A program made the translations under genes and the position numbers. A stretch of 63,847 nucleotides of DNA, filler included, from Craspedostauros australis (lineage: Eukaryota): NCBI GenBank assembly GCA_030167865.1. It is 10 parts of 10 records of this genome, joined end to end, with 100 filler letters (N's around TTAATTAATTAA, not from the genome) between each part and the next. Parts side by side here need not be neighbours in the genome. Positions count along the whole stretch, not along the records: positions 42,093 to 55,495 come from JALAGF010006075.1; 9 more parts are not named here. One strand, 5' to 3'. The notes under the pieces are model-generated. The model did not search any database, was not told where the DNA came from, and saw nothing but the letters and a program-made list of their open reading frames with translations. The first letter of the stretch is position 1, and each line of letters begins with the position of its first letter. Of the stretch, positions 8,404-52,144 are shown piece by piece.

Positions 8404-8503
8404 NNNNNNNNNNNNNNNNNNNNNNNNNNNNNNNNNNNNNNNNNNNNTTAATTAATTAANNNNNNNNNNNNNNNNNNNNNNNNNNNNNNNNNNNNNNNNN
8501 NNN
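8404..8503. other. Artificial contig linker N44-TTAATTAATTAA-N44
   Basis: Six-frame stop spacer. The same 100-bp linker recurs at 10746-10845, 23075-23174, 28204-28303, 36694-36793, 41993-42092, 55496-55595, 58106-58205 and 60773-60872. Confidence 0.97.
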
Positions 8504-27000: not shown

Positions 27001-28115
27001 AGCACCTGCACCGGGGATTGAGCGACATCGGATTCACACAGAGCAAAGTCGACGAATGCGTCTACTACCATGGAAAGACAATGTTTCTGGTGTATGTGGA
27101 CGACGGCATCCTTGCAGGACCCAGTGCAGAAGAGATTGACAAACTTCTCAATCAAATGCAACAGCGGTTCAATATCACCGACGAAGGGGGTCTCACGGAC
27201 TACCTGGGTGTGCACGTCACTCACCTGGAGGACGGACGCATCAAACTGTCGCAGCCCCATCTCATCGATCAGATCGTGAAGGACCTGAACTTTCGTCCAA
27301 ACACCAGACCCAGGGACACACCGGCAATGACGACAAAGATCCTGGATGCAGACGAGAATGGCGAGGAGCACAACGCAACCTGGAGCTACCGATCAGTCAT
27401 CGGAAAGCTCAACTTCCTGGAGAAATCCACTCGCGGGGAGATCGGGTACGCTGTGCATCAAGCAGCCAGATTCAGCGCCAATCCGAAGAAATCGCACTCA
27501 CAAGCGGTGAACCTCATCGGGCGGTACCTGATGGCAACCAGAGACGAAGGCATCATCCTGAATCCCAACGACAAGGCATTTGAATGCTTTGCCGACGCAG
27601 ACTTTGCGGGATTGTGGAACAGAGACACAGCAGCCGAAGACTCAGCCACAGCCAGATCAAGGACCGGATACCTGATTCGGTTTGCAGGATGTCCAATCAC
27701 ATGGGCATCGCGCTTGCAAACGGAGATCGCATTGAGCACAACCGAAGCCGAAGTGATCGCACTATCAACAGCGTTGCGCGACGTGATTCCAATGATGAAC
27801 CTGCTCAACGAAATGTGCGCCAAGGAGATTGTACCAGAGAAGTACAAGCCCAGGGTGTACTGCAATGCATTCGAGGACAACTCCGGCGCCTACGAGATCG
27901 CCAAGTTTCCAAAGATGCGACCCCGAACAAAGCACATCAACATCAAATACCACCATTTCCGATCGTACGTGGATCGCAAGCTCATCGAGATCTACGCCAT
28001 CGACACCGACGACCAGCTCGCAGACCTCTGGACGAAACCACTCGCAGACGACAAGTTCCACAAGTTCACGGAGCTCTCTATGGGATGGAAGTTCACACAA
28101 AGGGATCAAGGTTGA
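24027..28115 (+). CDS. pol: Pol polyprotein (protease-integrase-RT-RNase H)
   Basis: PR MAVDNCAS; INT HYKLGH..CASC, SVDQ, ADNG, NGVAE; RT WKARLNVHG, QIDFVLAY, LYGQKQAG, YVDD; RH FADADFAG, STTEAE, EDNSGA, RTKHI, LADLWTKPL. Confidence 0.95.
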   Translation: MIGRRVWAQLLTLCRPLIMALLTAICVAAFAHGDEESGMAMVVVALVTWTAWRIALIQGHPRKHTRWRPNHHKCRRYYAHGNGIRPPRIGRKSGWRTRTMRHLWAAADTETDDTFAMPLARFDSDSFQMAVDNCASTSFTNSKDDFIGEPTKIDKVVKGVGSRKVNLQGKVRWKIEDDRGNRHVIELDKVIYEPSLPFRLLCPQHWAQCSKDLDGTGCTTLGNRMEIFWDRRKHRRSIPLTSSNIGMIRSSSGYHGFRKYCMTNSVQEITPTEPMDAANLVSDDEESVVMDDDEGSINQSEQAVTTSGAEDQLSKEPTQIDFRDVPYRAPVDTTLEYSSTPTADMLRLHYKLGHASFNKMRTMASKGEIPAKFRDCQLPACASCEYGKATRRPWRTKGGNQQVSKLVPINRPGDCVSVDQMESPTQGFIGQIKGRLTTQRYRAATIFTDHHSRFSYVHLQKSTNAEETLHAKQAFEAYAKTYGVTIRHYHADNGRFAEKKFLSHVDRSGQTITFCAAYAHFQNGVAEKRIRDLQEAARTMLLHMHIRWKEAASISLWPYALRMANEVMNATPNPVINHITPIERFSGSAIKPQLKHFHSFGCPTYVLNPRLANGQSQPKWMSKARIGIYLGLSPRHARSVALILNPRTGLVSPQFHVKCDDMFETVVGTTGTNHGRWKQLAGISKPGVIKRSKGVTATEGLRGSSDTDASTLPTAQHPNADDPEGDEEFEATKETMGDDINIGEAPSDTATTEPPGSNQQEQSAGLRRSNRHRTPSRKVRENGDTEVVALPSAFEVANTFENGKGFDTNETSDPIAFAASADPDTMYYHQAMKQPDRMKFKAAMQAELNAHHENGHWEVVPRSEVPEGTKVVASVWSMKRKRRIKTREVYKWKARLNVHGGQQVKGVNFWETYAPVVTWMSIRLVLILSILHNWHTRQIDFVLAYPQAEVETTIYMEVPVGVSIGDGDTKDYVLKLVKNLYGQKQAGRVWHQHLHRGLSDIGFTQSKVDECVYYHGKTMFLVYVDDGILAGPSAEEIDKLLNQMQQRFNITDEGGLTDYLGVHVTHLEDGRIKLSQPHLIDQIVKDLNFRPNTRPRDTPAMTTKILDADENGEEHNATWSYRSVIGKLNFLEKSTRGEIGYAVHQAARFSANPKKSHSQAVNLIGRYLMATRDEGIILNPNDKAFECFADADFAGLWNRDTAAEDSATARSRTGYLIRFAGCPITWASRLQTEIALSTTEAEVIALSTALRDVIPMMNLLNEMCAKEIVPEKYKPRVYCNAFEDNSGAYEIAKFPKMRPRTKHINIKYHHFRSYVDRKLIEIYAIDTDDQLADLWTKPLADDKFHKFTELSMGWKFTQRDQG

Positions 28116-28389: not shown

Positions 28390-31002
28390 ATGACTTCGAA
28401 CGACGAACCCAACACGAGCAACCGCGAAGAGACGAAGGCAGAAGATGGCCCAACCTTGCCACCTCCCACCAAGGAACCTGACAAACCTGCGAACCCAAGA
28501 GAGGACGATACAGGCAACCATCATCGCGCCCGACGACAAGCAAAAAGAGCCATCCCTTACGATGGAGGAACCGAGGAGAACGACCCCGACGACGTGTCCA
28601 TCACCTACAAGCCAAGATCCAGCACGTTCAAGACCGCGGCCAACAAGACCGGCATCGACATCACGCCATTCGCACGAGCAACAGGAGACGGATCCATCGA
28701 CAGATCAGCAAAAGCAGCATGGAGAGCCAGAGCAATCTGGTATAACAAGGATGAGGCGACGGCCGACCGCGAAAACCCGACCATCAAACAGTGGGAGCAC
28801 TTCTTCAGAGATCTCGCAGACGGAAGGGTCACATCATTCGGGCCCATCACGCTGCCCAACAGAGACCCCACAAGAATGAGGCTCCTGCAATTCGTCATCA
28901 ACGTTGCATCCACCGATCCCCACGAGGTATTCAAAGTACATCTCAACGACGACGGCACGGTACGAACGGCAAGAGCAGTCAAAGTATGGAAGGCCGCGAA
29001 TCGACTCATGGGCTCCAACTACGATCTGGGAGCAGCACCTCTCGCAGACAACGACATCCACATCGACACAATGGAAGGCCTCACACTCCAGACGGAAGGC
29101 GCGGAAGCGAGCACAGCCAGGATGTCCACAAGCCAAGCATTTGCAGCCATGCCAATCGACACAACCACGGGATCCATCAGCACAGACAGCGAGTCGTACA
29201 CCAGCCGCCAGCCGTCCAAACGCACCAGATTCAAATCTCCGAAACAGACAACCGACATGCCACGAGTCAGCCAGAACAGCACGAACAACTCGCAATCTTC
29301 AGGGACGACAAGCAGCAACGATTCGTCAACTGACTCAGGCGTGACCAGACACAGAAGTGGCCCTCGGAACCCTGCCAACCGCAAGCCGTCCACAGACGAC
29401 AACTCCGTCAGCTCAGATGAGGAATCCAACACATCCCAGGCAAAGATAGCACCACCGCGACACGAGCACACCACCAGATTCACAATCAAACTCAACGTCG
29501 ACAGAACCGAAGACGACACCACAGCCGCAGTGCGAGAGCGCATCAAGCGATGGTTCCGGCAGGTCCGACGAATCGATCCTACAGCGGTGATCCTCCCATG
29601 GAGAGAGTCGGCCAACACAGGTCCCCACATCGCCCACTCAGGACAAATTCCAGAGAGAATGGAGGACCTCAGAACCTTCTTTCAAGGATTGCGAGCGCCA
29701 TCCGGGGCAACAGGAATCACGTACGCGAAAGTCCGCATCACCACCAGAGATGATCCCTTCGACATCACGGCAGACCGCAACGCGGAGCTCAACCCATACT
29801 ACTACAACGAGCATGAGGGATTGTACAAAGCCCAGCTCCAAGACGCAGAAGAGGTGAAAGAGATCGGCTTCCTACTATACTCTGGAGGATTCACAGACGT
29901 GGACAGCACAGTGGAAATCATAAACAGGAGCTTCCGACGAACAAACAGCGACATCAGAGTGGGCGGAAAGATGAAGAACATCATCCAGGTCAGCGACGAA
30001 ACCAGAGAAAAGTACAGAGAAGGCAAGCGACACTGGACAGTCCAACCTTGGAGAGCGGTGAAGCTGGAAGTCGAAAGATCACAAGCTTACGCTGCGGTCG
30101 AAGAAGTCGCAAACCTCTTTAACACACGAGCGGAGAGACCGGGAGCCACCAACTTCCGGTTCTTGCCCGACAAGAAGTTTGAGCAAATGTCCCGAAAGAA
30201 GAGCGAGTTCCGAGACGGCCTCATGGCAAAACACCAGGCCATACTTGCAGTGATTGAGTACTCGGACTCCGATGGAGTACTGCACCTGGACAAGAAAGTC
30301 AAAGGCAAGGACAACCGCTCCATCACTCTCCGTAAACTCATACTCCGAGAGACAACCAACGACGGCAAACGGATCTTCCACAGTGTGGACAGAGCCCGAG
30401 GCACCGACGACCAAGTCGTGGCGCACTCATTCCCCGAATACCTGGAACCAGCAAAGCATTTCATGAGCCTCCTGCCTGCAATCGCCCGACACAAAGTAGG
30501 CCCCAAAGCCGAAAAGTGGTTCAGTCCGGAGGTGTGGATTGCCAGCCTCAACATTGTGTACGACCCAGCGACCAACGACTACACGTCCCCTGACACGCAC
30601 AACCTGGAAGACATCGCCGATGAAGAGTTCCCCGCCAGTGTGATCATCACCAATATCCCCGATATGATGCCCACCACTCACAGGCCAGCGGCTCTTGACA
30701 ATCGAAGCCTGTTCAATCCCAACTCGACGATCGGCACCGCCAACAGGTCCATCGACTCAGCGTACACAGCTGCCCCCAATCTGACCACAGGAGACCAAAC
30801 AGACAGCGGATCCAACGCACCGAACACCCCCAACACAACCTCCCACACCACCGAAGGAATCCTGCGTACCGGCGCCAACACAAGATACAACCAGCCCCAG
30901 ACAAGGGAAGCACAACTACTGGCACAGGTGCAAGCACTCCGGCGAGAACTTGGCAAACCCGACGGCGACCCTCCGCAGCCCAATGGAGGCCAGTCACCAT
31001 GA
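28390..31002 (+). CDS. LINE ORF1 protein (870 aa)
   Basis: Intact long ORF with the same A/C-rich strand bias as ORF2. Its stop overlaps the ORF2 start (ATGA). Confidence 0.8.
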   Translation: MTSNDEPNTSNREETKAEDGPTLPPPTKEPDKPANPREDDTGNHHRARRQAKRAIPYDGGTEENDPDDVSITYKPRSSTFKTAANKTGIDITPFARATGDGSIDRSAKAAWRARAIWYNKDEATADRENPTIKQWEHFFRDLADGRVTSFGPITLPNRDPTRMRLLQFVINVASTDPHEVFKVHLNDDGTVRTARAVKVWKAANRLMGSNYDLGAAPLADNDIHIDTMEGLTLQTEGAEASTARMSTSQAFAAMPIDTTTGSISTDSESYTSRQPSKRTRFKSPKQTTDMPRVSQNSTNNSQSSGTTSSNDSSTDSGVTRHRSGPRNPANRKPSTDDNSVSSDEESNTSQAKIAPPRHEHTTRFTIKLNVDRTEDDTTAAVRERIKRWFRQVRRIDPTAVILPWRESANTGPHIAHSGQIPERMEDLRTFFQGLRAPSGATGITYAKVRITTRDDPFDITADRNAELNPYYYNEHEGLYKAQLQDAEEVKEIGFLLYSGGFTDVDSTVEIINRSFRRTNSDIRVGGKMKNIIQVSDETREKYREGKRHWTVQPWRAVKLEVERSQAYAAVEEVANLFNTRAERPGATNFRFLPDKKFEQMSRKKSEFRDGLMAKHQAILAVIEYSDSDGVLHLDKKVKGKDNRSITLRKLILRETTNDGKRIFHSVDRARGTDDQVVAHSFPEYLEPAKHFMSLLPAIARHKVGPKAEKWFSPEVWIASLNIVYDPATNDYTSPDTHNLEDIADEEFPASVIITNIPDMMPTTHRPAALDNRSLFNPNSTIGTANRSIDSAYTAAPNLTTGDQTDSGSNAPNTPNTTSHTTEGILRTGANTRYNQPQTREAQLLAQVQALRRELGKPDGDPPQPNGGQSP

Positions 31003-34000
31003 TAGGCAGCCACAGACGGGCACAGTCCAGCCCGGACACCGACGGACCCAACACGCCAGGGAATTCGAGTTCGGATGAATCGAATCTCCAACAACAACAC
31101 CTCGGCCAAACCACCAACCAAAAGGCCAACACCCAAATCAGGATCGCCACCCTGAACGTAGGAAGCCTACCAACCGACCCTACGGACCCCAAAAACGACG
31201 ACCTATGGCAAACCATACGCCAACACCACATTGACATACTGATGATGACGGAAGTGGGCATCAACTGGAGCAAGACCCCGTCGGACTCCACGCTTGCCCG
31301 CAGAGCTGACAGACAGCTACGCATGGCGAAGATTGCCACAGCACACTGTCACACAGACAGCGACAGCCCACGACAATGGGGCGGCACCGCCGTACTTTCC
31401 CACGGAAACATCGCAGGCCGAGTCCTCTCCAGCAGCAACGACCCCGGAAAGTGCGGCAGATGGGCAAGCGTACTACTCCAGGGACGACAGGGCATCAAAG
31501 TCCGAATCGCCTCAGTTTACGTCCCCACCAAGTCCACCCAAACCTCTGGAACCGTCTACAACCAACAAGCTGTCAAAGCCGCCCAGCGCCAATCGACACT
31601 GGACCCCATCGATCTGCTCATCGCCGACCTGCAAGCACAAATAGCACGATGGCAACAAGCAGGCGAGACAGTGATCATCGGAGGTGACGTCAACATGGAC
31701 GTGCGACGGTCCAAGATCACCAACATGCTGCTCGCCGAAGGCCTCCAAGAACACCACACCAACAACATACGACACCCGTATGCCACCATGATCAGAAACA
31801 GACGACGGACCCCCATCGACGGAATCTGGGCCACGAACGACGTCCAACCCAATCAAATGGGGCTGACACCGTACGGCAGCTGGGACCACCGCATGGTGTG
31901 GTTCGACATCAGCACGAACCACCTATTCGGGCACACCAAGCAGCCAACCCCACCGTTCCGAGGGAGACGACTCCAACTCAGCCAACCCACCACGGTCAGA
32001 AGATACGTGCAGGTATACGAAAGCCAAGCTAACTCGCTACATCTTCTGGAACGGGCGCAATCTCTGAACCAAGCAGTCAGCAATGACCAGATGACACCGC
32101 TGCAGATTCAGACACTCGAGAAAATCGACAACGACAGAACTCAGGCCATACTCCAAGCAGAACGCAAGTGCCGCAAGATCAAAGCTGGGAAGGTGCCCTT
32201 CTCACCGATAGTGTCCAAGCTGAGGTGGGAACATCAGTTCTGGACTCTCAGCATCAAGAGGAGACAAGGCCACAACATCAAAGGGCGCACAATCGACAAG
32301 GCGAAGAAGAAGGCCCACATCCAGCAACGCACGAAGCACATGACAACGGCAGAGATGCACCGGCACCGCAACGCGGCGTGGAAGGCATATCAACAAGAGA
32401 AGAAACACGCCACTGAACACCGGAGGTCATTCTTGGCCGACGACGAAGACGAGGTGGCCAACACCGGAGGCGACACAGCCAAATACCGAGCCCAGCTGCT
32501 ACAGCGAGAGGAGACCAAGGCAACATACCGAAGAATCCGGTGGTCCCTGCAGGCGGATGACTCCAATGCCCAAGTGTCCATGGTCATAGATGACGGCCCA
32601 GGGGGTGAGAACAATCTGCTAACCGCAGGCGAAGAAGTGGCCCGAGCGTGCTGCAAGACCAACATTGACAAGTACAGCCAGGCGTGGCAAGCGGAAGTCT
32701 GCCAGCGACCACTTAAGCGCAGCCTGGGGCGATTCGGATCCAGCCCAGCCGCCACCGCCATACTCAACGGCATCATCCCGTCGCAGATACGCAACAACAC
32801 CAGCGACACCCTTCACTCACTCCGGCGGCCCCAAAGAGCCACACCGTGGCCCCCCGACCTTCTACATATCAGCCAGGAAGACCATTCGCGAGGATGGGCA
32901 CGCATCAAGGAAAGCACGTCATCGGGTCCTTCCGGAATACACTTCGGGTGCTGGAAGGTCAACGCAACCATCCCCGCCCTGGCAACCATCGACTCCATAA
33001 TGAGAGCGATCCCGTACCGCACAGGATACAGCCTCAAACGATGGCAGCAGTGCATCGACATACAGCTCCGGAAAAAGCCAGGCAACTTGGCAGTGACCAA
33101 AACGAGGACCATCGGGCTCATGGAAGGCGACTTCAACATGAACAACCGACTCCTTGGCAAACAAGCCAGGTCGCATGCAGAATCCAATCTCACCCTGGCA
33201 ACGGAGCAGTTCGGCAGCCGCAAGGCGCACACAGCCCAAGAAGTGCTACTCAACACAGTCCTCATCGACGACATCGCAAGGATCACAGGCGCACACTATG
33301 CCATATGCTCCAACGACGCAAAAGGGTGCTACGACCGCATTGCCCACCCCATCTTCAGCCTAGCCCTTCAACGGCAGGGAGTGCCTACAGCACCCATCAC
33401 GAGCACTCTTCGCACCCTCCAGTCGATGACCCACCGCATCCGCACGTCAGCCGGAACATCAGTTTCGTCCTACTCCGGCAAGCAGCGCCACAACTACCTT
33501 CAAGGACTGGTCCAAGGGCTCGGATCCGCACCGACAGGGTGGCTGCTCATCAGCTCCGCCATTATTGATAGCATGAGAGCCAGAGGGTACGGCCTCAACC
33601 TCCCCGACCCCATCACTCGCGATGGCCATACCATCATGGGCACCGCGTACGTCGACGACACCAACATCATGCAAAGCCTGCCCCCCACAACACCCAACGA
33701 GCAAGCGCAATCCTTCCAGGCAGCCGTGGACCACTGGGACGGCCTCCTTACCGCCACTGGCGGGGCACTGGAGCCATCCAAGAGCTTCTGGCAGCTCATA
33801 CGGTTCAAGTGGCAGCGCACGAAGTGGGTCTACGACAACAAGATGCCCACCACGAACGTCTGCATGAACACTCCGACCGGAGAACGCACCCAACTAGCCC
33901 TCACCGGCCCCAGGTCGGCCTCCAAATACCTTGGCATGGTGTCCCGGAGAGACGGACGCCAGTCCGAACACACGCAATATCTGCTCCAGAAATCCCTCAC

Positions 34001-36545
34001 CTGGGCGGCACGCATCCGAGCGTCTCGCATCACCCGACAAGACACAGAGGTGGCTATCAAATCCGTACTTTGGCCATCGCTGCAATACTCGTCTCCGGCA
34101 ACCACAATGTCCACAGACCAATGGAACAAAGTGATGAGCACAGCACTCACGACCGCACTGCCGGCCATGGGAATCGCCCGCACCATTGCACGCCAGTACG
34201 TGTTCGGCCACAAAGACGCCATGGGAATGGGAGTACTGCACCTGTACACAGCCCAGGTGACGTCTCACTTGGAAATGGTTCTCAAGCACTTTGAACGCCC
34301 CACAGAAACAGGACGACTACTACGCACCTCACTGCATCATCTCGAGCTGTGGACGGGATTGCCGGGGCTACTTCAACAGCATGAGAAAGCGTGGGGAAAC
34401 TGGACCTGCTCCGGGTGGTGGCAAAACACATTCAAATCGGCGTCCAAGCTCGGCATCCAGATGACAGACCAATCCCACCCATCCAAAATCCCCCGGACCG
34501 GAGACAGCCCCATCATGAACCTCGCCATCACTTCCGGCCTCCATCGACAGACTCTGGCGCTCGCCAACGTTGCTCGACTACACCTGCGAGTGCTCTGGCT
34601 GTCAGACATCTCCACGGCCGACGGAAGTCAGATACGACCGACGATCCTACAACGCGAAAGGCTGCCATCGAGAGGCATCACCTGGCCCAGCGTTGGCAAG
34701 GTCACCAAGTCGGCGTGGGAGGCGTGGGAAGCGGTCCTATCAACAGTGGCGGCCCCAGACCAGCCAGGATGGCACCTACGGACCCAACTCGGGCCATGGC
34801 AAGGCGCGCCGGCAGGGCGTGACACCCAACTACCGGATGGCACCATCTCCCCCTTCGACCGACCGGCCCCAGCAGCGGCCACGGACCCTCGCCCGGCCCT
34901 CGTGGTTGACCGCGCTCTTCGCAGATCCGGCATGGCCATCACATCCAGCGGGAGAATCGACAGATCGCCAACGCCCGCCACCATACGAGAATGGCTGCAT
35001 CGGAAAGGCCCCGCAGCGGAGGCAATGCTCCCCGATATACACATCCGAGGCGATGTCCATGCAATAGTTCGGTCCATCGCAGCCGGCACCTGTGTGGCAT
35101 GCAGCGATGCCTCGGCCAAAGACCACAAAGGATCTGCCGCGGCTATCATCCAGAGCGGCCTGCAGGACGATGCGCACCAGATCGTGGCGACAGCCGCCGT
35201 TCCCGAGGGCTCTCACCCAACCGACTCCAACAGAGCGGAGCTTGCGGGGGTCCTCATATCCATTTGGCTCATCACCTCGGTAGCAGAGTGGTCCGACATC
35301 CAAGGTAGCGCCACCGTCGCCTNNNNNNNNNNNNNNNNNNNNNNNNNNNNNNNNNNNNNNNNNNNNNNNNNNNNNNNNNNNNNNNNNNNNNNNNNNNNNN
35401 NNNNNNNNNNNNNNNNNNNNNNNNNNNNNNNNNNNNNNNNNNNNNNNNNNNNNNNNNNNNNNNNNNNNNNNNNNNNNNNNNNNNNNNNNNNNNNNNNNNN
35501 CCTCGCCGACGGCTATGCAGGGTACCACTGGGATCGGTTCTATGCAAGCAGCTCCCGAGCCCCAGCAATGGTGGTGCCTACGGAAGGATGGACCCTAAGC
35601 ACCGCTGCCGGTCCCCTCACCGATCTCGACTACTGGACAGTCTCGTCTCTCATCGACGATGGCGGCATCAAAAAGAAGTGGTGCGAAAGATGGGGAGCCT
35701 CCAGCCCGACGAACGTAGATTGGGAGCCCATGCGCTCGGTCTCCCGGAGATGGAGCGGAGGCAAGCGGCGAACGTTGCTCAAGCTCATGACGGGCACCGG
35801 CGCCAGTGGCAAGAACATGCAGCGACGCCAGCAGGAGCAATCCGCAGAATGCCCCAGGTGCGGCAGGCCGGAAGACAACACACACATCCTCATGTGTCCC
35901 AGCGCTGCGAGCCAGTCCATTTGGGCCAAAGCCATCCTCAAAGTGCGGTCAATCGTGAGACCGCCCACCACCCCACCCGAAGTCGCCCAGCTAGTTTGCA
36001 CGGCAATCAAGCGCATCACATCTGGAGGCATTCCTCCCTCAGGCATAAGGACGTCGCCCACTCAGAACATCCAGGTGAGACAGGCCAACATCGGTTGGGT
36101 AGCTCTAATCTGGGGCGGCTGGTCCACCTCGTGGCGAGACCAGGCCCCTCCAATGGCTCCTCACCGGAGACGACGTGCTCCCAAGCTGCTCCGAGACTGG
36201 CAAGTGAGCATCACAAACCTCATGTGGCATACCGTCCTGCAACAGTGGCATGACCGCAACGAAACCAAGGCGGAGCAGACGTCGCAAGGCATGACGGCTC
36301 TCCTTCAACAACAGCTTCACCGCCTCCGTACAACACCCACCGACGCGATCCCAGCAGTGCTGCGACCGCTATGGTCCAACCCACCAGCAACAGCCCAAAT
36401 CGCCGCCCTAGTCCCGTGGGTCCAAGCGATGCAACAAGGACTCGGCCTCGCGGCACCGGACATCCCGACCGTACTCACCAACTGGATGAAAAACCAGCGA
36501 CGTCGCCACCGAGCACCAGCCACTCGCCCCTCGAACCCAGCCTGA
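30999..36545 (+). CDS. LINE ORF2: AP endonuclease, reverse transcriptase, RNase H, CCHC zinc finger
   Basis: APE ATLNVG, MMTEVG, IIGGDVN, PIDGIW, DHRMVW; RT SGPSG, SNDAKGCYDRI, QGLVQG, AYVDDT, KYLG; RNH CSDAS, SNRAEL, LAD; CPRC..EDNTHILMC. One N gap at 35323-35500. Confidence 0.93.
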   Translation: MIGSHRRAQSSPDTDGPNTPGNSSSDESNLQQQHLGQTTNQKANTQIRIATLNVGSLPTDPTDPKNDDLWQTIRQHHIDILMMTEVGINWSKTPSDSTLARRADRQLRMAKIATAHCHTDSDSPRQWGGTAVLSHGNIAGRVLSSSNDPGKCGRWASVLLQGRQGIKVRIASVYVPTKSTQTSGTVYNQQAVKAAQRQSTLDPIDLLIADLQAQIARWQQAGETVIIGGDVNMDVRRSKITNMLLAEGLQEHHTNNIRHPYATMIRNRRRTPIDGIWATNDVQPNQMGLTPYGSWDHRMVWFDISTNHLFGHTKQPTPPFRGRRLQLSQPTTVRRYVQVYESQANSLHLLERAQSLNQAVSNDQMTPLQIQTLEKIDNDRTQAILQAERKCRKIKAGKVPFSPIVSKLRWEHQFWTLSIKRRQGHNIKGRTIDKAKKKAHIQQRTKHMTTAEMHRHRNAAWKAYQQEKKHATEHRRSFLADDEDEVANTGGDTAKYRAQLLQREETKATYRRIRWSLQADDSNAQVSMVIDDGPGGENNLLTAGEEVARACCKTNIDKYSQAWQAEVCQRPLKRSLGRFGSSPAATAILNGIIPSQIRNNTSDTLHSLRRPQRATPWPPDLLHISQEDHSRGWARIKESTSSGPSGIHFGCWKVNATIPALATIDSIMRAIPYRTGYSLKRWQQCIDIQLRKKPGNLAVTKTRTIGLMEGDFNMNNRLLGKQARSHAESNLTLATEQFGSRKAHTAQEVLLNTVLIDDIARITGAHYAICSNDAKGCYDRIAHPIFSLALQRQGVPTAPITSTLRTLQSMTHRIRTSAGTSVSSYSGKQRHNYLQGLVQGLGSAPTGWLLISSAIIDSMRARGYGLNLPDPITRDGHTIMGTAYVDDTNIMQSLPPTTPNEQAQSFQAAVDHWDGLLTATGGALEPSKSFWQLIRFKWQRTKWVYDNKMPTTNVCMNTPTGERTQLALTGPRSASKYLGMVSRRDGRQSEHTQYLLQKSLTWAARIRASRITRQDTEVAIKSVLWPSLQYSSPATTMSTDQWNKVMSTALTTALPAMGIARTIARQYVFGHKDAMGMGVLHLYTAQVTSHLEMVLKHFERPTETGRLLRTSLHHLELWTGLPGLLQQHEKAWGNWTCSGWWQNTFKSASKLGIQMTDQSHPSKIPRTGDSPIMNLAITSGLHRQTLALANVARLHLRVLWLSDISTADGSQIRPTILQRERLPSRGITWPSVGKVTKSAWEAWEAVLSTVAAPDQPGWHLRTQLGPWQGAPAGRDTQLPDGTISPFDRPAPAAATDPRPALVVDRALRRSGMAITSSGRIDRSPTPATIREWLHRKGPAAEAMLPDIHIRGDVHAIVRSIAAGTCVACSDASAKDHKGSAAAIIQSGLQDDAHQIVATAAVPEGSHPTDSNRAELAGVLISIWLITSVAEWSDIQGSATVAXXXXXXXXXXXXXXXXXXXXXXXXXXXXXXXXXXXXXXXXXXXXXXXXXXXXXXXXXXXXLADGYAGYHWDRFYASSSRAPAMVVPTEGWTLSTAAGPLTDLDYWTVSSLIDDGGIKKKWCERWGASSPTNVDWEPMRSVSRRWSGGKRRTLLKLMTGTGASGKNMQRRQQEQSAECPRCGRPEDNTHILMCPSAASQSIWAKAILKVRSIVRPPTTPPEVAQLVCTAIKRITSGGIPPSGIRTSPTQNIQVRQANIGWVALIWGGWSTSWRDQAPPMAPHRRRRAPKLLRDWQVSITNLMWHTVLQQWHDRNETKAEQTSQGMTALLQQQLHRLRTTPTDAIPAVLRPLWSNPPATAQIAALVPWVQAMQQGLGLAAPDIPTVLTNWMKNQRRRHRAPATRPSNPA

Positions 36546-42092: not shown

Positions 42093-42562
42093 TCTCGACC
42101 TAACCCACGTTTGGGAACAGATGGCAGTCATTGAAGGGAATCCTTGGATCCCTGGGTCATGGAAAAACAAGGGTCCCGATGACCACAGTCACCCAAACTG
42201 TTGCCCGCCAAAATCTTGGTGGCTGAACAAGACTGAGGTTGTGAGGGACCAGCACCCAACAGGATCGTGCAACAGCACCCTTTGCCTCATCACCCCTTGA
42301 CAAAAAGGATCCCCTCCCACAGTACTCAGGCTATGCGACCTGTACATCCAGTCACTTAGAGCAGCATGGGAGGCCCTCCCTGACAAGAAGAATCATAGCA
42401 ATAACTCTCATAATTCGCACGTTTCTTTACCCATCAATAGTACTCTCAATCAACTACTTGTGATCAGAAGACACTCGTTCAGACCTACTTGCCAATCAAG
42501 CCTCTGCACACAGCTAACAACAAAGCCAACAAAACCTCAGCCATTATGTTTGGGCTCTGTTA
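42093..42562 (+). repeat. 5' LTR (left end cut by contig start)
   Basis: About 5 mismatches seen over 470 bp versus 51675-52144; ends GCTCTGTTA. Confidence 0.9.
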
Positions 42563-42575
42563 GATTAACAGTTGC
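42563..42575 (+). promoter_or_regulatory. Putative primer-binding site complementary to the tRNA-Asn(GTT) anticodon arm
   Basis: GATTAACAGTTGC abuts the LTR; its reverse complement GCAACT-GTT-AATC resembles a tRNA anticodon stem-loop. Confidence 0.6.
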
Positions 42576-42874
42576 AAAAGATTGTCAAGCTCTTAGACCA
42601 TTGCAAAATGACTCTTTCCAACCATGTCAAACTCTCCAACCAGCCACCTCCCAAGAGGAAGCCAGGAGACCCGACCCAAGCCTTCAAGACCATCCCCAAG
42701 GACCTGAAGGATCCCAGCCTCTCTGCCATCCTCAATGGCACACCAAGTACCCCAACAGATGGATCCTCATTGCTCTCCTTCATGGAGATTGGGAAGGACT
42801 TCATCGAAGTCATCTTCCGACACCCCATCATTGTCAATGCATGGGACTGAAAGGAAAAGACCTACGACTCCAAA

Positions 42875-45426
42875 ATGGTGTGCCACATCCACAGGACTAC
42901 CTGGGATGCATTCACCAACCTCCAGGAAGAATTTGGGATCAGCATCGAAACTGCTACAATCTTCGACCTCTTCCAACCTAAGACCCTCGTGGAAGAGAAA
43001 ACCCTCTCCGACCTGGTGAGTATCATCCATGAAGGAACCCCAAGAATGGCCCCAGGATCAATCATGATCAACCTCGCTGATCCAGACAACGTCGCAAGAA
43101 ACATTGACATGGGACTTTTCATCTACCATATCGCCAAATGGGTAGGGTCCATCAAAGTCAATAAGGATTCTTCTCTGAAGCAAACCCTCGACAGGATGTT
43201 CATCGACACAGATACCACCAAGAAGACAATGAGAGACTTCGACCAATTCGAAAGGCATGACAAACACTACCACAATGACAAGTGGTTGACTGCCATTGTG
43301 GTATACAAGAAGCTACTTTCCAATGCCACAACACCCAGCACCTCTACTGGATCAGAGGCATCGACCCCAAGGGGAGGACAAGACAATGACAGCCACCCAG
43401 GGAACACCCCTTCTGGGTTCTCATTCCTGATCAACGGAGCCACCCCGGAACGTACCCTGATCAGCTTCCCCAACGAAACCCAACTATCCAGCATTGCCAA
43501 ACAGGGATCCCCAACTGTCTCCCCACCGGCCACTAGCACTCGGGCACCTACCCGACCAGTGAGAGTACTGGCCAAGGAACCGGCATTCACCAATACCTTG
43601 GTACCATCAATACTACTGGAACAGCTACCGACCGTGGACCTGAAGGAAGGAACAAATTGTTCCCCAACATGAACCCGGAAACGATCGGTAGATACGACCG
43701 TAACCTACATGGTACCAAGGCAGCAACCTTCGCTCCCAAAGAAACCACCAGGACCCCAAGAGGTGCAGGCACACCCAGGATGGACCGACCAGACGGCTAT
43801 GGGAACCGGCCACCACACAACTGAAACCCACAGGACTGCCACGGCACCATGGGCAACCCTACCCTGCGCGATACGAGCAACTACCGCAACGACGATGGAC
43901 GCGAACCCATGAACCGGAACCCGACCGCCAACCCAGGCACAAGCCATGGGACAGGCCACTCGTACCCAGAGAACCACGGACCACCAGGATACCAGGGATA
44001 CAAGGAAAATGGCACCATGGGTAACCCAACCCCACACGACATGGGCAACTTCCGCAACGACGACAGACATGAACAGATGACCCATGGCCCGACTACCAAC
44101 AGAGGCACCAACCACGGAACAGGACACCCGTACCCAGGGAACCACGAACCACCAGGTAACCAGGGATACTACGGCAACGGCCCCTATGGCTACCCTCCCC
44201 ACGTAGAGAACCACTATGCGCACGGTCCACCGCACTTTGCCTTCCAATATCCCCACACAGGAGGATTTCCACCTATCGGTATCCCCGTCCCCATGGAACA
44301 CTTTCCCCATGGAAATGGAGGATTTCCCTCAGCCCAAGGAGCATTCGTTACCATCGGAAATCCCCTTCCTGGATACCCACCAGGACCAGCAGGGCATGGC
44401 CAGCATCCAGAGAACCCTCACGGGTGTCAATAAGACGAAGTGTGTGAATCAATGTTGTTCGCTAATATGATGAAAGATTGCATTGATTAGGTGTGGAGTT
44501 GCGGTCTGAACCCCTGCTGGTGTCTTGCTATGCTCTAGAAGAAAAGTGGGCGCGAGGTGCGCGCTTTGCGTACGCAGGGTAGGCGAGTCATGAGCGGGAC
44601 TAGAATCAATAACGGGAACCTCGGGGAACCCGACCCACGCACCATGGGCCCCGGTAATCAACGCGGACAACACGCGACCGGATATGCACCCCATCGAGGA
44701 CCCACCCACGATGAGCCACCACCAGCCCAAGCCAAGTTGATGAAACGTCGTCCCATCCCAGACTCCATCGATTTTACCAGCGACGCGGCATCCTTCCAGA
44801 TGGTGAAACACAAAATCCATGCCCACCTCCTTGGGAACGACATGTCCTACCTCATCAATCACCAGTTCCGCAGCCAGTGCCTTTCCAAAGGAATCCACTC
44901 GATCAGGGAATACATCAACCCGGTCACAGGGGCACCAACGACTACTTCTCCAGAACAGGTCGCAAGCAACATCAGGACCCTATTCGCGGGACTGTACTCC
45001 ATCATTGCTGGCAGCCCCGCACATGATCTAGCCACAAGAGGACTGCTCACTGAAGATGGTTTCATATTCTGGAACAAACTGCTGAATACCTACAAACACA
45101 ACTGGATCAGAGGCATGGAGGTCGACTCCCTCATGAAGAGAGTCCAAGAATTCAACCCTGGAAGACAGGACATGGGATCCTACGTCAAGGAAATCCAGGA
45201 CATCTTCGCCAACATGAACTTCCTGGCTACCAACCCTGACCAGCGAGTATCTGACACACAACAACGCCGCAAGCTCCTCAATTGTCTCATTGGCTGCGAT
45301 GACATCAATGTCCACACTATGGTGAGAAGCATTGAGCATAGCCCCGACATGCAGTCAATGGGCGCCACCTGCATGTACCTCATCTCCGAATCCGCCAGGG
45401 ACACTGCAGTCGCCAACAACCAATGA
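42875..45426 (+). pseudogene. Disrupted gag-like region with G/H/P/N-rich repeats
   Basis: ORF pieces 42875-43672, 43849-44433 and 44557-45426; the last two join in frame once the 44425-44611 insert is removed. Confidence 0.6.
44425..44611. mobile_element. 187-bp solo-LTR-like insertion with 5-bp TSD ACGGG
   Basis: ACGGG at 44420-44424 and 44612-44616; ends TG..TA; abrupt composition shift; removal restores ENPHG-NLGEP. Confidence 0.8.
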
Positions 45427-45504
45427 GGCACAAGATCCGGTAAGCGGAGGATCTACAAGGCAAACACCAAGACCGGCCGTGACCACAACGAAACCAACAC
45501 AGAG

Positions 45505-48500
45505 ATGCTAATCAACGCTATCTCTAAAAAGCTTCAAGAGGACCTCGCCTTCATCTCGCAGGAGGTATTCGACGGGCTACCCAAGAAGATATGCCAAGTC
45601 ATCATGAAGCTCTGTAGTTCACTCCGATGGGCCAGACACGGAAATAATCGGAATGGTTCCGGGTTCACCCGTGTCGAAGGGAAGAAAGAACAGGACAACA
45701 ACCCTCCGTCCGCTGACAAGAAGATCTCTGAGAAAGGGGAGGGCACCGCAGCCCACAAGCAGTACGGCGTCATTGCACAAGCCAACCTGGCCAAGTACAC
45801 CTCAGGGTTTGAAGATCAACCCGACAATCAGGATGATGACGAATCCGACCTATCTTCGATCGACGCGACGGAACTGGCCAAGTTCCTGGTCGACTATGGT
45901 GGATACGACGACGAGGGCGACGATCGACTCATGAAAATAATCACGATGAGCGACTCGTCTGACACGAAGGACACCACTGACCTACCCGCCGACTGGCCAC
46001 GCCAATCGGTACCGGAGCAATTAGTCCACCTCGCGGCATTCTCGCCACAGGCATACGCGGTATGCGACGGCAGCGCGCAGTGCTGCGTCATTGGGAACCA
46101 AGACAAAGTCTGGAAAATTGACTATGTCTATCCACACCAGACATACAACATCATTGGCGCCATGGCAAACACAATGAGGAAAAACAACCTCGCAGTGGTA
46201 GACACGAGCGTCAAGGTCAGAACCAAGGAAGCTGTCTGGTACCCCACAAGGGCGGATGACCAGGATCCCACCGGCAAAACGGCGCAAGGACACAGCCAAA
46301 ACAACTCACCCACTGACATGAAAGAACAAAGCCAATGGAACGACACAGCACACCGGAATCCTGGACACAGGGGAGACATGGCGCGCAGGACCTGTCACCC
46401 AATCCCAAACACTAACCAAGCGGACAGCCAAGGCACCCATGACACGCGTCGCCGAGAAAGCCAAATCGTGAACGACCCGCGATACGCCAGACGAGGAAGA
46501 CTCTGGCCCAGGGTCTTCGTATCTTCCATGTTCGTCGGGACCACCATCATACCAACGCATGGATGACGGCCCCAAAAGAAAGGGGAGGGAATAAGAGGAC
46601 CAAGCAAAAAAACGATCCGTTTTGTCCGCAGGCACCAGGAGAGGCATCCCATGGAAGAACATCATCCATGGAACAATCAGATCCATAGTCCAGACCATCA
46701 CAGCGAATCCAGTCGCGACAGGCGTGAACACCAAACCACCGCAAAGGGTACCCACCCTAACAAACCACCCAGGGAACCCGAGACAGAACCCACCAGGATG
46801 CAACACGAACATCCCATGGGACACGACATCCATCTCTTTCGCCTGCAACCTCATGGCATCAGAGGTCAACCAACTCGCGTACCTGGCTCAATGCGACCAG
46901 TACACCGAAAGAGACAACTTCATCCTCGACGGAAGGAACCTCAACTGGAACGCAAAGGGAATCACACACCACCACTACGAGACACGAGAGGACGGAACCA
47001 CTGAAGCAATCCTGGAGATCCTATGGATGAACGGGATGCGATCATGGTGCAGGATGGGAGACCTAAGGGCCCAACAACCAGACATCATCATCGAATACAC
47101 CGAACAGAACCACCTACAGGACCAGAAGGGCTTCAAATGGGTGGAACCCCACAGAGCAAGGAACCAACACATGTGATCAATGCTAGCCACAAGACTGGCA
47201 AACCATCATCCAGGAAACAAGTACAAGTTCGGCACCCTTGTCCCCAACAGCCTGAGACACGCCATGGCTATCAACAGACTCAACGGGAACGAACTTTTGG
47301 AGCAAGGCCATCAACAAGGAACTGGACCAGATCAAGCGGTTGGGAACCTTCAGACAACCAAGACCGAACGAAACACTCGATGGATACACCAAGATCCCAT
47401 ACCACATCGTTTACGATGTGAAGTTCGACCTACGTCGAAAGGCAAGACTGGTGGCAAACGGAAACAAGACATCCCCACCAACAGAAGACGTATACTCAGG
47501 GGTGGTAGCATCAGACACCATCCGAATCGCCTTCGCCATTGCAGCAGCCAACGGACTGAGAGCATACGCCGGCGACGTAGGGAACGCGTTCCTATACGCA
47601 GACACCCTCGAGAAATGCTACATTCGAGCAGGCCCTGAATTTGGCAACCTCGAAGGCAAACCCCTCATCATCCAAAAGGGACTCTACGGCCTAAGGACAT
47701 CAAATGCGAGGTTCCACGAACATTTCGCCGACACCCTCCGAACCATGGGATTCCTACCCTCCAAGGCCGACAACGACATCTACACCAGAGAAGCCGACGA
47801 CCACTACGAGATGATCACCACATACGTGGATGACGTACTGGTTTTCAGTAAGGACCCCATCCCAATCATCGACGACCTCAAGAAACGGTACACCATGAAG
47901 CAATGCGGTGACCCAGAATACTACCTTGGCGGAAACATTGTCGACCTTCCCAAGAACTGGAAGGACAGGGGAGTCAACATCGGACTCTCGGCCCAGACAT
48001 ACATCGGAAACGTCATCAAACGAGTGGAGCAACTAGTAGGGAAAACAATCCCGAAGGCATCCACTCCCATGGTAGAGGCCTGTCACCCAGAAAGCGACAC
48101 CTCGGACTTCACAAGCACTGAAGACGCCAGGACCTACCAATCAATACTGGGTTGCCTCAATTGGGTCGTGGCCCTCGGGAGGTTGGACATCCAATACGCC
48201 ACGACGACGATGGCACGGTTCGCCATGGCACCAAGGGAGGGGCACCTCCTGACCATCCAACGCATCATTGGGTACCTCAAGGGTCGAGAAAGGGGAGCCA
48301 TCCTTTGCAACCCCAACCCAGTGGACCACACAGACATTGACACTACTCTCTCAAGCCACTGGAGAGAATTCTACCCAACTGTCATGGAAGTCATCCCTAC
48401 TTCGGTACCGACACCAAAAGGAAAACCGGTTCAGATCACGTACTATGTGGATGCCAACCACAGGCATGACCAGATCACAAGGAAATTCATGACAGGCATG

Positions 48501-49112
48501 GTGTGAATGATCAACAATACCATCGTCAAGACCATTTGCAAACAGCAGAACACAGTGGAAACATCCACCTACGGATCCGAATTGGTGGCTGCCAGAATCG
48601 CCACCGAAGCGGTCACCGGACCACGCTACATGCTCAGGAACCTCGGGGTACCCATCGACGGACCAGCAATCATGCTCGGAGACCACAAGGCAGTGGTACT
48701 CAACACCACAGTTCCATCATCAATCTTGAAGAAGAAACACTGCTCCCTGGCATTCCACCAGATCCGCGAATGCACTGCTGCTGGGATCAGCATGTTTGCC
48801 CACATTGCGTCAACCGAGAATATCGCCAACATACTCACCAAGCCGCTCTCCAAGACCCCCTTCCACCACATCACATCAAGAACAGTATTCAGGAACTCGA
48901 TCCATGAGTCAGGGTACCACAGCAAAATCATATCCCCTGCAATCACACAAGCCAGGGCAACCAGAGCAGAGGACGATCCTGACCCAACACCCACGCAGAC
49001 ACCAACACGACCACACCACGAGAACGAACGCACCGACAGAATGAACATAAATGTCATCCGGTACCAACAAACATCCATGAGATTCAGCCCAACACCGAAA
49101 CCATCCGGCTGA
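45505..49112 (+). pseudogene. pol: Disrupted pol: protease, chromo-like domain, RT, RNase H; integrase core not found
   Basis: PR AVCDGSAQCC; EILWMNGMRSW..FKWV; KYKFG..VP; RKARLVANG, GDVGNAFL, LYGLRTS, YVDD; YVDANH, ETSTYGSE, LKKKH, ILTKPL. Several stops and frameshifts. Confidence 0.88.
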
Positions 49113-49533
49113 CCAGGACCCAACGAGAACCGACCCCCCTCGAAATGACACGGAGGAGAGCGCCGAGACCCATCAAGCCTACCATGAATGCACTGGCCAC
49201 ACCCAACCGACAACGCACACGAAATTCCAATGTCTCATGCGACATGGTGGACACATGTATCATGACTCAGAATTGTGAACAAACTGAAACCCCGATCGAC
49301 AATTTCTTGCACGCGCGCGTTGGCACACCGCCTTCAAACCTCACGGATGAATTCAGCCCACTGTCGAGTATCAATCCTTCCACGACATCAGGTAGAAAAA
49401 AGCTGCATTCTATCCGAGGGACATGATGGAGACAGCACCGAGCATGCCTGCCGGCCAATCACATGTTGCCACATCGACATTGTACTGAAAGAAGCCACGA
49501 AGCACCACCAACCCAGCTGCCAACGAAGGAGTC

Positions 49534-51492
49534 ATGGAGACTTCCCACCACACAGGCCTGGCACACCGTGTCATCATCACACCGGAACACGAAAACTTCA
49601 GATGTGACATGTTGATCACTGACCTCCAAGAAGACTTGGCACAGAACGCAGCTTCGGCCTCTTTCGCGTTTCGCAGCGTGAACATGCCATCTCCGTGGAC
49701 ACAAAGCTGCCACATCAACAACATCAGACACAATTTCAGCAGCACCCAAAGAAAAGCATCCACCATGACGTTCCCAAAGCACACGCCATTCTATGGCAAC
49801 AACCGTTGTCCAGTTCCAGGATCCAGGGTGCTATACCCCGCAGGAAAGAAGGGCTGTTTCCAAGGAGTCGTCGTTGGATACAGTGGCCGCAGAGTGTGGA
49901 TCTACTGCACCAAGAGCTGGGGAAGCGCCAAGGTCGACGCCCTCACTTACGTGGAAAGCCAATCCATCTTCCCACTCACTCTCTCCGAATACCTCGACAG
50001 TAACCTTGTAGCCACCGAGGTCCTCAGCATTGCCATAGCCGATGGCCATTGCTTCTACCCCCCAGAGGATGGCGCATGGGCAGAGCCACTTGACCCACAA
50101 CGCACTACCAACCGGAAGCCCTCTATCTGCCACTTTTTCCAGGTAAGACAGAACCGAATCCCAGCCATCATGGCACGAGCAGGAATAGCACGCAAGGTCC
50201 GACGACAGGGTGACACCCTCGCCACCAATCTTGCACGAGAGAAGAAGGCACTCGATGGAGCACCTCTTCCACCTGACGCCAATGATGCCATGGTCACCGG
50301 ACTCCCCAACCTTGAGGAGAAGAGGCCTCAGCTCAAAGAAGGAGAAACGCCAAATGGCAGCTTTGTGGATGAGATCCCCGAAGGTTACTTCAACCAGAAA
50401 CCCACTGCCAGGGAAGCCAGACACCGTGGAACCGACACTGACACAGAACACGATGAAGACCAGGGCCCACCAGAACCAGAAGGCGTGATCAGCGTGGAAG
50501 CAGCGATCACAGACGGGACAGTGATTAGCCACCCCGTCCAACCCAGGCCCCCTGTCAGGCGATCCCCGCGAGCACCAACCAAGTCCAAGATCTTGACGGC
50601 CACAAGAGATGGGCGAGGATACATTAACAAGGTCCAAGCATTCCCTCTACCTCTTCCACCCCAACATGAGGATGATCCGTCAAATCTGGAACATGGAGAC
50701 AGCGATGACTCGGAGTCCCTCTACCGACCAGAGGAGAACACCACCAGCCGAACCCATGTCCATTACCACCAAGGGACCAAGGCTTATGACAAGCAAGGCA
50801 CGCATGTCGGAAAAAGAGGAATCTTCGATGGCTCGGACAATTCGACCGCTATCCTGACCGATCCAAAGGTATCGGAGCGGATCATCATCAATCGCACTCG
50901 CTCCAGGAAGACTGCAAGTGGATCCACCAGGACCAAAACGCCAACTCCAACTGCAGATCAGGATGATCATAAAGATAACCCGACCCTGCCCAAGGAGAGT
51001 CCCAAAGACTCGATAACAACACCATCCGCTGACCAAGACGGAAAGGGAGACGACACACCCTTGAGCACCAATTCTCCCAGCCCTCGAAATGCTCCACCGC
51101 CCAAACCATCAACTCCGGAAACAGAGGAAACCAGCAATCCGCGAAAAAGGCCACAGGTGGAACAACAGCTGATGGAGACCTACCCGTCGTCTAGACCACT
51201 CAGATCAGGATACATCATGGCGAGCGCTCGAAGACCAGTGAGGGGCCAACCCAGGATGCATCAACCAGTGCTAAACCCCACCGCTCACATCATGGCAGTC
51301 CTCCGCTCGGACCCCAATTCGGACCAGATCATCCACGATCTCGCTACGGTCCTCTTCCGTGGGGGCATGACCCACATCAACGCGCTCCATCAGATCAGCA
51401 TCACCTTCAAGCTGAATGAAGAGCTGGAACGGTTGGGAACCAGGGGTTTTCAAGACCAGGCAAACCGTGATGCCAATGAATTCCACGAATGA
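49534..51492 (+). CDS. Extra sense ORF between pol and 3' LTR (unknown function)
   Basis: 652-aa open frame (alternative start MTFPK at ~49766) ending about 90 bp before the PPT. Confidence 0.7.
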   Translation: METSHHTGLAHRVIITPEHENFRCDMLITDLQEDLAQNAASASFAFRSVNMPSPWTQSCHINNIRHNFSSTQRKASTMTFPKHTPFYGNNRCPVPGSRVLYPAGKKGCFQGVVVGYSGRRVWIYCTKSWGSAKVDALTYVESQSIFPLTLSEYLDSNLVATEVLSIAIADGHCFYPPEDGAWAEPLDPQRTTNRKPSICHFFQVRQNRIPAIMARAGIARKVRRQGDTLATNLAREKKALDGAPLPPDANDAMVTGLPNLEEKRPQLKEGETPNGSFVDEIPEGYFNQKPTAREARHRGTDTDTEHDEDQGPPEPEGVISVEAAITDGTVISHPVQPRPPVRRSPRAPTKSKILTATRDGRGYINKVQAFPLPLPPQHEDDPSNLEHGDSDDSESLYRPEENTTSRTHVHYHQGTKAYDKQGTHVGKRGIFDGSDNSTAILTDPKVSERIIINRTRSRKTASGSTRTKTPTPTADQDDHKDNPTLPKESPKDSITTPSADQDGKGDDTPLSTNSPSPRNAPPPKPSTPETEETSNPRKRPQVEQQLMETYPSSRPLRSGYIMASARRPVRGQPRMHQPVLNPTAHIMAVLRSDPNSDQIIHDLATVLFRGGMTHINALHQISITFKLNEELERLGTRGFQDQANRDANEFHE

Positions 51493-51590
51493 AGCCCAGC
51501 TACCGCCATCTTGGGTGGCAGAACAACCCATGATACAGTTAGCTTTCTTGCTTTCAGTCAACTCACGTTTCAACATGAGATGAAGGGGAG

Positions 51591-52144
51591 TAATAGAGCT
51601 AAACTAGCAACCAACTTAGTGAAGGAAAATACAAGTACCCTGACTCAATACCATTCCAGTTGGTCCACCCCACGTCTCGACCTAACCCACGTTTGGGAAC
51701 AGATGGCAGTCATTGAAGGGAATCCTTGGATCCCTGGGTCATGGAAAAACAAGGGTCCCGATGACCACAGTCACCCAAACTGTTGCCCGCCAAAATCTTG
51801 GTGGCTGAACAAGACTGAGGTTGTGAGGGACCAGCACCCAACAGGATCGTGCAACAGCACCCTTTGCCTCATCACCCCTTGACAAAAAGGATCCCCTCCC
51901 ACAGTACTCAGGCTATGCGACCTGTACATCCAGTCACTTAGAGCAGCATGGGAGGCCCTCCCTGACAAGAAGAATCATAGCAATAACTCTCATAATTCGC
52001 ACGTTTCTTTACCCATCATTAGTACTCCCAATCAACTACTTGTGATCAGAAGACACTCGTTCAGACCTACTTGCCAATCAAGCCTCTGCACACAGCTAAC
52101 ACCAAAGCCAACAAAACCTCAGCCATTATGTTTGGGCTCTATTC
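51591..52144 (+). repeat. 3' LTR (554 bp)
   Basis: Starts TAATAGAGC right after the PPT and ends GCTCTATTC (terminal inverted repeat). Confidence 0.85.

Follow-up and report, generated by a model that had tools for sequence, protein, structure and literature searches.

The locus considered in this work raises a simple question: how might minus-strand synthesis begin in an LTR retrotransposon whose 5' LTR is followed by no TGG-type primer binding site (PBS)? Primer choice ties a retrotransposon to one host RNA, and tRNA-derived small RNAs can silence elements via the same site. The element lies within a window of 63,847 nucleotides of Craspedostauros australis sequence (the window being the whole stretch of DNA analysed), and a first-pass annotation had proposed that it is primed by one half of a tRNA-Asn through a short site abutting the 5' LTR. 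Here we bring together the structure of the element, a survey of related loci and a comparison with tRNA genes, and conclude that this site is, with a probability of roughly 0.8, a PBS for the anticodon arm of a half tRNA-Asn(GUU), a reading that is drawn from sequence comparison.

The element and the site beside its 5' LTR

The window is a chain of contigs in which nine N/TTAATTAATTAA/N linkers (at 8448, 10790, 23119, 28248, 36738, 42037, 55540, 58150 and 60817) join separate contigs; TTAATTAATTAA presents a stop codon in all six frames, and features that appear to cross a linker point are artefacts. As a whole the window is repeat-rich, unplaced sequence. It holds a second copia polyprotein frame at 24027-28115 (+), apparently intact (gag_pre-integrs, SH3_retrovirus and RVT_2), on a contig (23175-28203) that starts inside gag and carries no LTR or PBS, together with a LINE-like frame at 30699-35322 (+; Exo_endo_phos and RVT_1), a third RVT_2 fragment at 61046-62233 (+) and two large AAA_16 frames on the minus strand (866-5404 and 10846-14540), one of them with TPR. 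No further copies of the element studied here were found within the window.

The candidate for half-tRNA priming sits in the contig at 42093-55284, which opens within an LTR. The two LTR copies, compared over 42093-42561 and 51675-52143, lie in direct orientation and are 99.1% identical over 469 nt; because the contig begins inside the 5' copy, at 42093, the target-site duplication is unreadable. The end of the LTR falls at 42561 or 42562, depending on how one reads an A at 42562 that stands against a C at the matching 3' LTR position (52144), and its terminal inverted repeat (TIR) is formed by TAATAGAGC and GCTCTATT, with A as the next base in the 5' copy and C in the 3' copy. Two direct LTRs and a polypurine tract before the 3' LTR (Table 1) are accompanied by a reverse transcriptase (RT) of the Ty1/copia type, RVT_2 being recognised on 47256-48506 (Pfam PF07727, E 4.8e-25; score 89 bits, cutoff 31.6). 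Judged on these features, the element is a Ty1/copia-type LTR retrotransposon.

Table 1. Features of the candidate element, and related loci that carry a second type of site
Feature	Position	Strand	Remarks
5' LTR	42093..42562	+	ends ...GGGCTCTGTTA; contig start removes first ~84 bp
Putative PBS, GATTAACAGTTGCA	42563..42576	+	complement corresponds to anticodon-arm positions 27-40 of a tRNA-Asn(GUU)
T deviating from consensus	42573..42573	+	lineage consensus C; opposite tRNA position 30
Leader and open frames, frame shifting	42607..44433	+	between PBS and gag-like region
Gag-protease region, one frame	44539..46566	+	in-frame stop 45424-45426
Integrase-position segment (upstream of RT in relatives' polyproteins)	46865..47290	+	frame differs from those of protease and RT
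Reverse transcriptase (RVT_2) and RNase H	47256..48896	+	in-frame stop 48504-48506
Extra 667-residue open frame	49489..51492	+	between RNase H and polypurine tract
Polypurine tract, GAAGGGGAG	51582..51590	+	directly before 3' LTR; TAATAGAGC comes next
3' LTR	51591..52144	+	554 bp; begins TAATAGAGC, ends GCTCTATTC
GTTTATCAGACCCA loci: L003, L004, L006, L008, L017, L020, L026, L032, L034, L051, L054, L060, L068, L069, L077	e.g. L006:6182-6195		

The coding region is recognisable to differing degrees along its length. RT and RNase H share 51-53% identity with the polyproteins of relatives over ~540 residues (tblastn). The segment at the position of the integrase gave weak tblastn matches, at 23-27% identity over 46820-47464 (with P0008, P0010, P0015 and P0021), and no match to a Pfam integrase on 46595-47176; one relative, P0088, has PF00665 together with RVT_2. 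The gag-protease region returned no Pfam match and contains, in yet another frame, a protease-like match to the polyprotein of a relative at 46060-46242 (tblastn, P0010), and two scanned frames of the leader (42851-43672 and 43825-44433) matched no family. A direct duplication of ~185 nt (43843-44026 and 44011-44195, +; 77% identical) precedes the gag-like region, in a frame rich in Gly, Pro, His and Asn. The 667-residue frame, also without a Pfam match, is either an extra ORF or an insertion, RT and RNase H being C-terminal in the polyproteins of relatives. With two frame changes and two in-frame stops, the window copy is dead.

The LTR terminates in ...GCTCTGTTA and is followed by GATTAACAG. 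As first described, the 13-mer GATTAACAGTTGC (42563-42575, +; reverse complement GCAACTGTTAATC) adjoins the LTR, the alignment of the two LTRs stopping at 42561, and the reported lack of a TGG-type PBS is borne out by the 70 bases that follow (42563-42632, read by eye), in which no TGG was seen. Comparison with relatives extends the site by one base, to 42576. The window contains no other site of the Asn, Ile, Lys or iMet type, and the 13-mer occurs in it once at up to one mismatch, for a chance expectation of 0.09 and with at least one match in 9 of 100 shuffles; a single 13-mer in the window, taken alone, is not significant.

Conservation of the site and the deviating base of the window copy

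A protein search with the RT of the window element returned 890 hits among 7909 candidates, and the 120 matches listed are 44-59% identical to it and all carry RVT_2. Scanning metagenomes with an alignment of this RT and 15 of the hits gave 532 related stretches; the analysis uses the best 80 of these (L001-L080), whose RTs are 35-58% identical to that of the window. Across these best 80, AGATTAACAG, a ten-base core that includes the last A of the LTR, was found in 15 loci, on the RT strand in all 15 and on the opposite strand in none; when each locus was shuffled (200 trials), it turned up in 0.79 loci on average and never in more than 4. The same core is among the ten most widely shared 10-mers of the 80 loci, beside a motif coding for YVDD and the polypurine tract, and thirteen of its 15 loci extend it to the full 11-base core GATTAACAGTC.

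The placement of the site is equally consistent. In all 15 loci the preceding sequence reads ...TA, ...CA or ...AA, i.e. an LTR end, and in L005 and L072, where the LTR could be delimited independently by polypurine tract and TIR, the site begins at the next base. Conservation across family copies had been proposed as a check on the first reading, and a site conserved at the junction of LTR and internal sequence is what the relatives show. Relative to RT, five loci have the site 3.9-5.5 kb upstream, and ten, which are permuted or tandem assemblies, have it 0.8-1.8 kb downstream. Variation outside the 11-base core takes the forms GTCTC(G), GTCGC(A), GTCAC, GTCGT and GTCTT and is confined to positions pairing with the variable stem, as would be expected if the stems of the hosts differ.

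Many of the 80 loci (e.g. L003, L034, L061 and L071) have identical contig ends of 89-123 nt, which identifies them as LTR elements assembled as circular permutations with one LTR copy; circular one-LTR assemblies of this kind would escape standard two-LTR finders. The polypurine motif GAAAGGGGAG is present in 15 related loci, partly inside coding sequence, and stands directly before a TIR-defined LTR start in L005, L006, L008 and L051; a scan of all loci for LTR ends by polypurine tract and TIR was very noisy, and its stricter version left a handful of clean cases. Neither the Asn motif nor the Ile motif described below occurs exactly in 51 of the 80 loci, most of which are short contigs. Five of these 51 were read by eye: three have variant sites of the half-tRNA type (L003, L055, the latter an Asn-type site with a 1-base insertion, and L059), L040 has a site of the TGG type and L067 is ambiguous.

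The relatives also refine the definition of the site, in that the core of the 13-mer is conserved across the lineage while one of its bases is not and its length falls one base short. The window reads GATTAACAGTT where 13 loci have ATTAACAGTC, C being present at the equivalent of 42573 in 13 of the 15 relatives, and the 14-mers of L052, L072 and L080 equal the GATTAACAGTTGCA of the window except for C in place of T at this position (position 11). The T at 42573 would form a G-U pair if tRNA position 30 is G, as it is in viral tRNA-Asn arms; for all 13 bases to match perfectly, the tRNA stem would have to contain an unlikely A30/C40 mismatch. The T could plausibly have arisen by deamination, the changed C standing in a CpG in the GTCGC form.

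This deviation raises the first of the alternatives to be weighed, namely that the window copy or its immediate family lost priming through the C-to-T change and never mobilised with this PBS, leaving a relic. The T at 42573, against C in 13 relatives, and the disrupted reading frames of the window copy both point in that direction. However, the LTR divergence of 0.85% corresponds to ~0.06 changes expected in 14 bases since insertion, so that the T may predate insertion and a T-bearing copy may itself have transposed, and a G-U pair is tolerated in an RNA duplex. We therefore regard loss of priming as unlikely, while giving it real weight; it concerns the window copy only, and not the identity of the site.

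The identity of the partner RNA

The complement of the site core, GA-CUGUUAA-UC, has the form of a 7-base anticodon loop, with U before and A after a GUU triplet and two flanking bases on each side. Two patterns, the complements of the two extended forms met most often, were compared with tRNA genes on phage and giant-virus contigs, a comparison that bears on sequence identity and not on presence in the host: of 116 viral-contig loci with GAGACTGTTAATCTC, 70 have it inside the anticodon arm of an ARAGORN tRNA-Asn(gtt), as do 110 of 119 with GCGACTGTTAATCGC, the other 46 and 9 loci, respectively, being without a tRNA call. Over both patterns all 180 ARAGORN tRNA genes are Asn(gtt), with no other isotype. 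The complements of whole 14-base sites also occur among 184 such tRNA-Asn genes, TGCGACTGTTAATC (the GTCGCA form) in 54 and CGAGACTGTTAATC (the GTCTCG form) in 6. ARAGORN found no tRNA genes in the window or in the 80 loci.

The C that pairs with the first base of the PBS is found at positions 39-42 of the genes, corresponding to canonical position 40. The LTR-adjoining site is thus complementary to the anticodon loop and stem, starting opposite position 39/40, and the anticodon-GTT register proposed in the first-pass annotation is recovered, the PBS beginning opposite the second base past the loop. Because the PBS starts there, the primer must be a 3'-truncated tRNA. The exact complements of extended PBS forms in real tRNA-Asn(GUU) genes of viral contigs likewise argue for the original choice of tRNA, and we consider the site to be, most probably, a PBS for the anticodon arm of a half tRNA-Asn(GUU).

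A different RNA with a similar arm could in principle occupy the same site, whether tRNA-Lys, an organellar tRNA-Asn or a tRNA-derived repeat. The arms of tRNA-Lys differ at only one or two loop bases, one related locus (L059) carries the Lys-type GATTAAAAGTCTGG at the same place, and passages of PMC5445492 report that the fungal copia element FunCo1 has a site complementary to an internal region of tRNA-Lys. Against this stands the C opposite anticodon position 34, which is shared by the window and all 15 loci and fits the G or queuosine of GUU but not the C or U of Lys, together with the uniform Asn(gtt) assignment of the 180 tRNA genes described above. Such a substitute for tRNA-Asn is accordingly quite improbable.

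We propose that the site serves as the minus-strand PBS of this Ty1/copia-type element and that the primer would be a 3'-truncated tRNA-Asn(GUU), the 5' part of a molecule cut two bases past the anticodon loop, so as to end at canonical position 40 or possibly 41. Through its terminal 11-14 bases (positions 27-40, comprising the stem strand, the CUGUUAA loop and UC) this fragment would pair with GATTAACAGT(C/T)GCA on the element RNA, and reverse transcriptase would then extend the tRNA fragment into U5 and R. Cleavage of the tRNA, and priming itself, are suggested by analogy with Drosophila copia and Ty5.

Priming could alternatively proceed from the element's own RNA, through a hairpin of the kind reported for the fungal GalEa copia elements, whose conserved hairpin site is noted in passages of PMC5445492, or through self-priming of the Tf1 type. 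The window does contain a 6-bp inverted repeat across the LTR end (CTGTTA-GAT-TAACAG), L061 has the same LTR end, and the same passages of PMC5445492 place GalEa and the diatom CoDi elements in one copia branch. In 13 of the 15 loci, however, the last six bases of the LTR are not the complement of TAACAG (e.g. CTCATTA, TCTCTTA, CTTCATA and TTTAACA), and the longest complement of the site within the LTR measures 7 nt in the window and 5 nt in both L005 and L072, lengths reached in 100, 494 and 488 of 500 shuffles, respectively. A conserved hairpin of the GalEa type was rejected on the first ground, the inverted repeat being confined to the window and L061 and absent from the 13 other loci, and Tf1-type self-priming on the second, there being no significant complement of the site in the LTRs of the window, L005 or L072. 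The LTRs vary among families, to the point of being unrelated, while the site remains constant, which argues for a shared cellular partner and makes priming from within the element very improbable.

Least credible of all is a functionless chance resemblance to the complement of an anticodon arm, for even if the 13-mer was picked singly and after the fact, with the shuffle matches in the window already noted, and the window copy has decayed, the core recurs far beyond its shuffled maximum, invariably at the junction and in the orientation of RT, in 15 loci that are not near-identical copies (RT end branches of 0.07-0.87 substitutions per site, in several clades).

Primer types across relatives and known systems

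The site read here as complementary to tRNA-Asn is one of several types among the relatives. In 14 of the 80 loci, and in L003 with an insertion (Table 1), the LTR end is followed by GTTTATCAGACCCA, whose complement has the loop CU-GAU-AA, forms stem pairs and corresponds to a C in the site opposite position 34. By the logic of the loop and the precedent of the plant Bianca lineage, GTTTATCAGACCCA reads as a site for the anticodon arm of tRNA-Ile, and by analogy its C opposite position 34 would be compatible with a G there or with inosine produced by editing of the Ile anticodon. Among viral contigs the Ile pattern fell within tRNA-Ile(gat) in 2 of 120 cases for the G34 form and in 0 of 120 for the A34 form, counts that are uninformative for assignment. 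In L059 (319-332), a TIR-defined LTR end is followed by GATTAAAAGTCTGG, the complement of which falls, in 43 of 119 viral-contig loci, inside a gene for tRNA-Lys(ttt) and never inside one of another isotype; this site reads as Lys(UUU)-type, which would make it a third half-tRNA primer type of this copia lineage. Sites of the Asn, Ile and Lys types share a start opposite one and the same stem position.

The distribution of these types over a quick IQ-TREE tree of RT, in which 39 rows are without a PBS call, suggests that they have exchanged more than once. In a clade of 26 rows, 12 loci are of the Asn type and none of the Ile type, a second clade, with 36 rows, includes four of the Asn type (the window, L005, L050 and L057) and eight of the Ile type, and a small clade holds three of the Ile type, so that the window sits among mostly Ile-type relatives. 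Parsimony places four changes of site type on the tree, of which at least two are forced by strongly supported branches. Inside an otherwise Asn-type clade, L040 (3217-3240) has LTRs of 1656 bp followed by the TGG-type site TTGGGTTTGGTCGGGG..., from which it follows that primer type also switches between half and full tRNA.

A broader and more tentative reading, which we regard as a serious possibility while leaning somewhat against it, is that 3'-truncated tRNAs are the only primers of a large copia lineage from marine and freshwater protists, so far undescribed in this regard, which has switched repeatedly among Asn(GUU), Ile and Lys(UUU) with the primer end always at position 40. If this were so, a single cut in the anticodon stem, independent of tRNA identity and made by host or element, would be implied, and the origin of such tRNA halves would be testable in a diatom.

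Priming by half of the initiator tRNA is established, with Drosophila copia and yeast Ty5 as the reference cases (Kikuchi 1986 and Ke 1999, as cited in passages of PMC10886601). The element described here resembles these in belonging to the Ty1/copia superfamily, in lacking a TGG site, in having a PBS that adjoins the LTR and in the start of that PBS opposite the second base after the anticodon loop; it differs in its partner, which is initiator tRNA-Met there and would be tRNA-Asn(GUU) here. In plants both half tRNA-Met and half tRNA-Ile have been reported, the Bianca lineage using half tRNA-Ile with A34-to-I editing (Neumann 2019, passages of PMC6317226). This would be the same class of mechanism, and the sister GTTTATCAGACCCA loci share with Bianca a C opposite position 34, whereas the window element differs from it in its tRNA, as do the hosts, plants in one case and protist or environmental in the other. 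Sites complementary to an internal region of a tRNA other than iMet are further known for fungal copia elements, both for FunCo1, mentioned above, and for Candida albicans Tca2/gamma, where a site internal to tRNA-Arg-UCU is described alongside iMet sites in Candida (passages of PMC4139406); in both cases the tRNAs differ from the one proposed here and the hosts are fungi.

A further precedent comes from rust fungi, for which passages of a recent study describe Copia and Helenus elements with PBSs directed at the anticodon loops of tRNAs for Tyr, Ile, Asp and iMet (Kojima 2024, PMC10886601). The same passages indicate that tRNA-Asn-GTT was chosen once in the fungal Helenus, the tRNA being given as Asp in one sentence and as Asn-GTT in another. 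The Helenus and Puccinia Copia elements are thus alike in having anticodon-loop PBSs for several tRNAs and repeated switches of primer type, and differ in that the Asn case in the rust fungus is non-autonomous, as against an autonomous-type copia with at least 15 environmental lineages here. The diatom CoDi copia elements (Maumus 2009, PMC2806351) possibly belong to the same broad group as the window element, a comparison based on the Atlas neighbour cluster of the window RT; that cluster is eukaryotic, with a phylum recorded for just 2 members and Bacillariophyta the most frequent. The main text of PMC2806351, searched by term, mentions neither primer binding nor tRNA nor a polypurine tract.

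The first-pass annotation had also named no earlier description of such priming for diatom elements. In a literature search whose scope lay outside subscription journals and Repbase reports, we indeed found no description of an Asn-type site for copia elements of diatoms, marine protists or other protists; searching by sequence string returned no retrotransposon paper, and one supplementary text file of PMC4247016 has no tRNA-Asn entry. Anticodon-arm PBSs for tRNAs other than iMet are nevertheless in print (PMC6317226, PMC5445492 and PMC4139406), and the novelty of tRNA-Asn as such had been overstated, since it is named for Helenus in PMC10886601. Half-tRNA priming is a known class of mechanism, for which this tRNA had already been named once in fungi, and novelty is modest; what is added here is the breadth of the site and the repeated switching of primers in environmental relatives.

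The known picture of copia replication is left unchanged by these findings. If the site is indeed a half tRNA-Asn PBS, the host tRNA-Asn(GUU) would be expected to carry an arm complementary to GATTAACAGTCGCA, in which position 30 is G and position 40 is C. And if a widespread copia lineage of protists depends on fragments of tRNA-Asn, tRNA-Ile and tRNA-Lys that share one fixed end position, an LTR end followed by GATTAACAGTC would provide a simple marker for annotation of a PBS that is missed by standard LTR tools seeking only tRNA 3' ends, and there would be a specific tRNA cleavage event to seek in the small-RNA data of diatoms.
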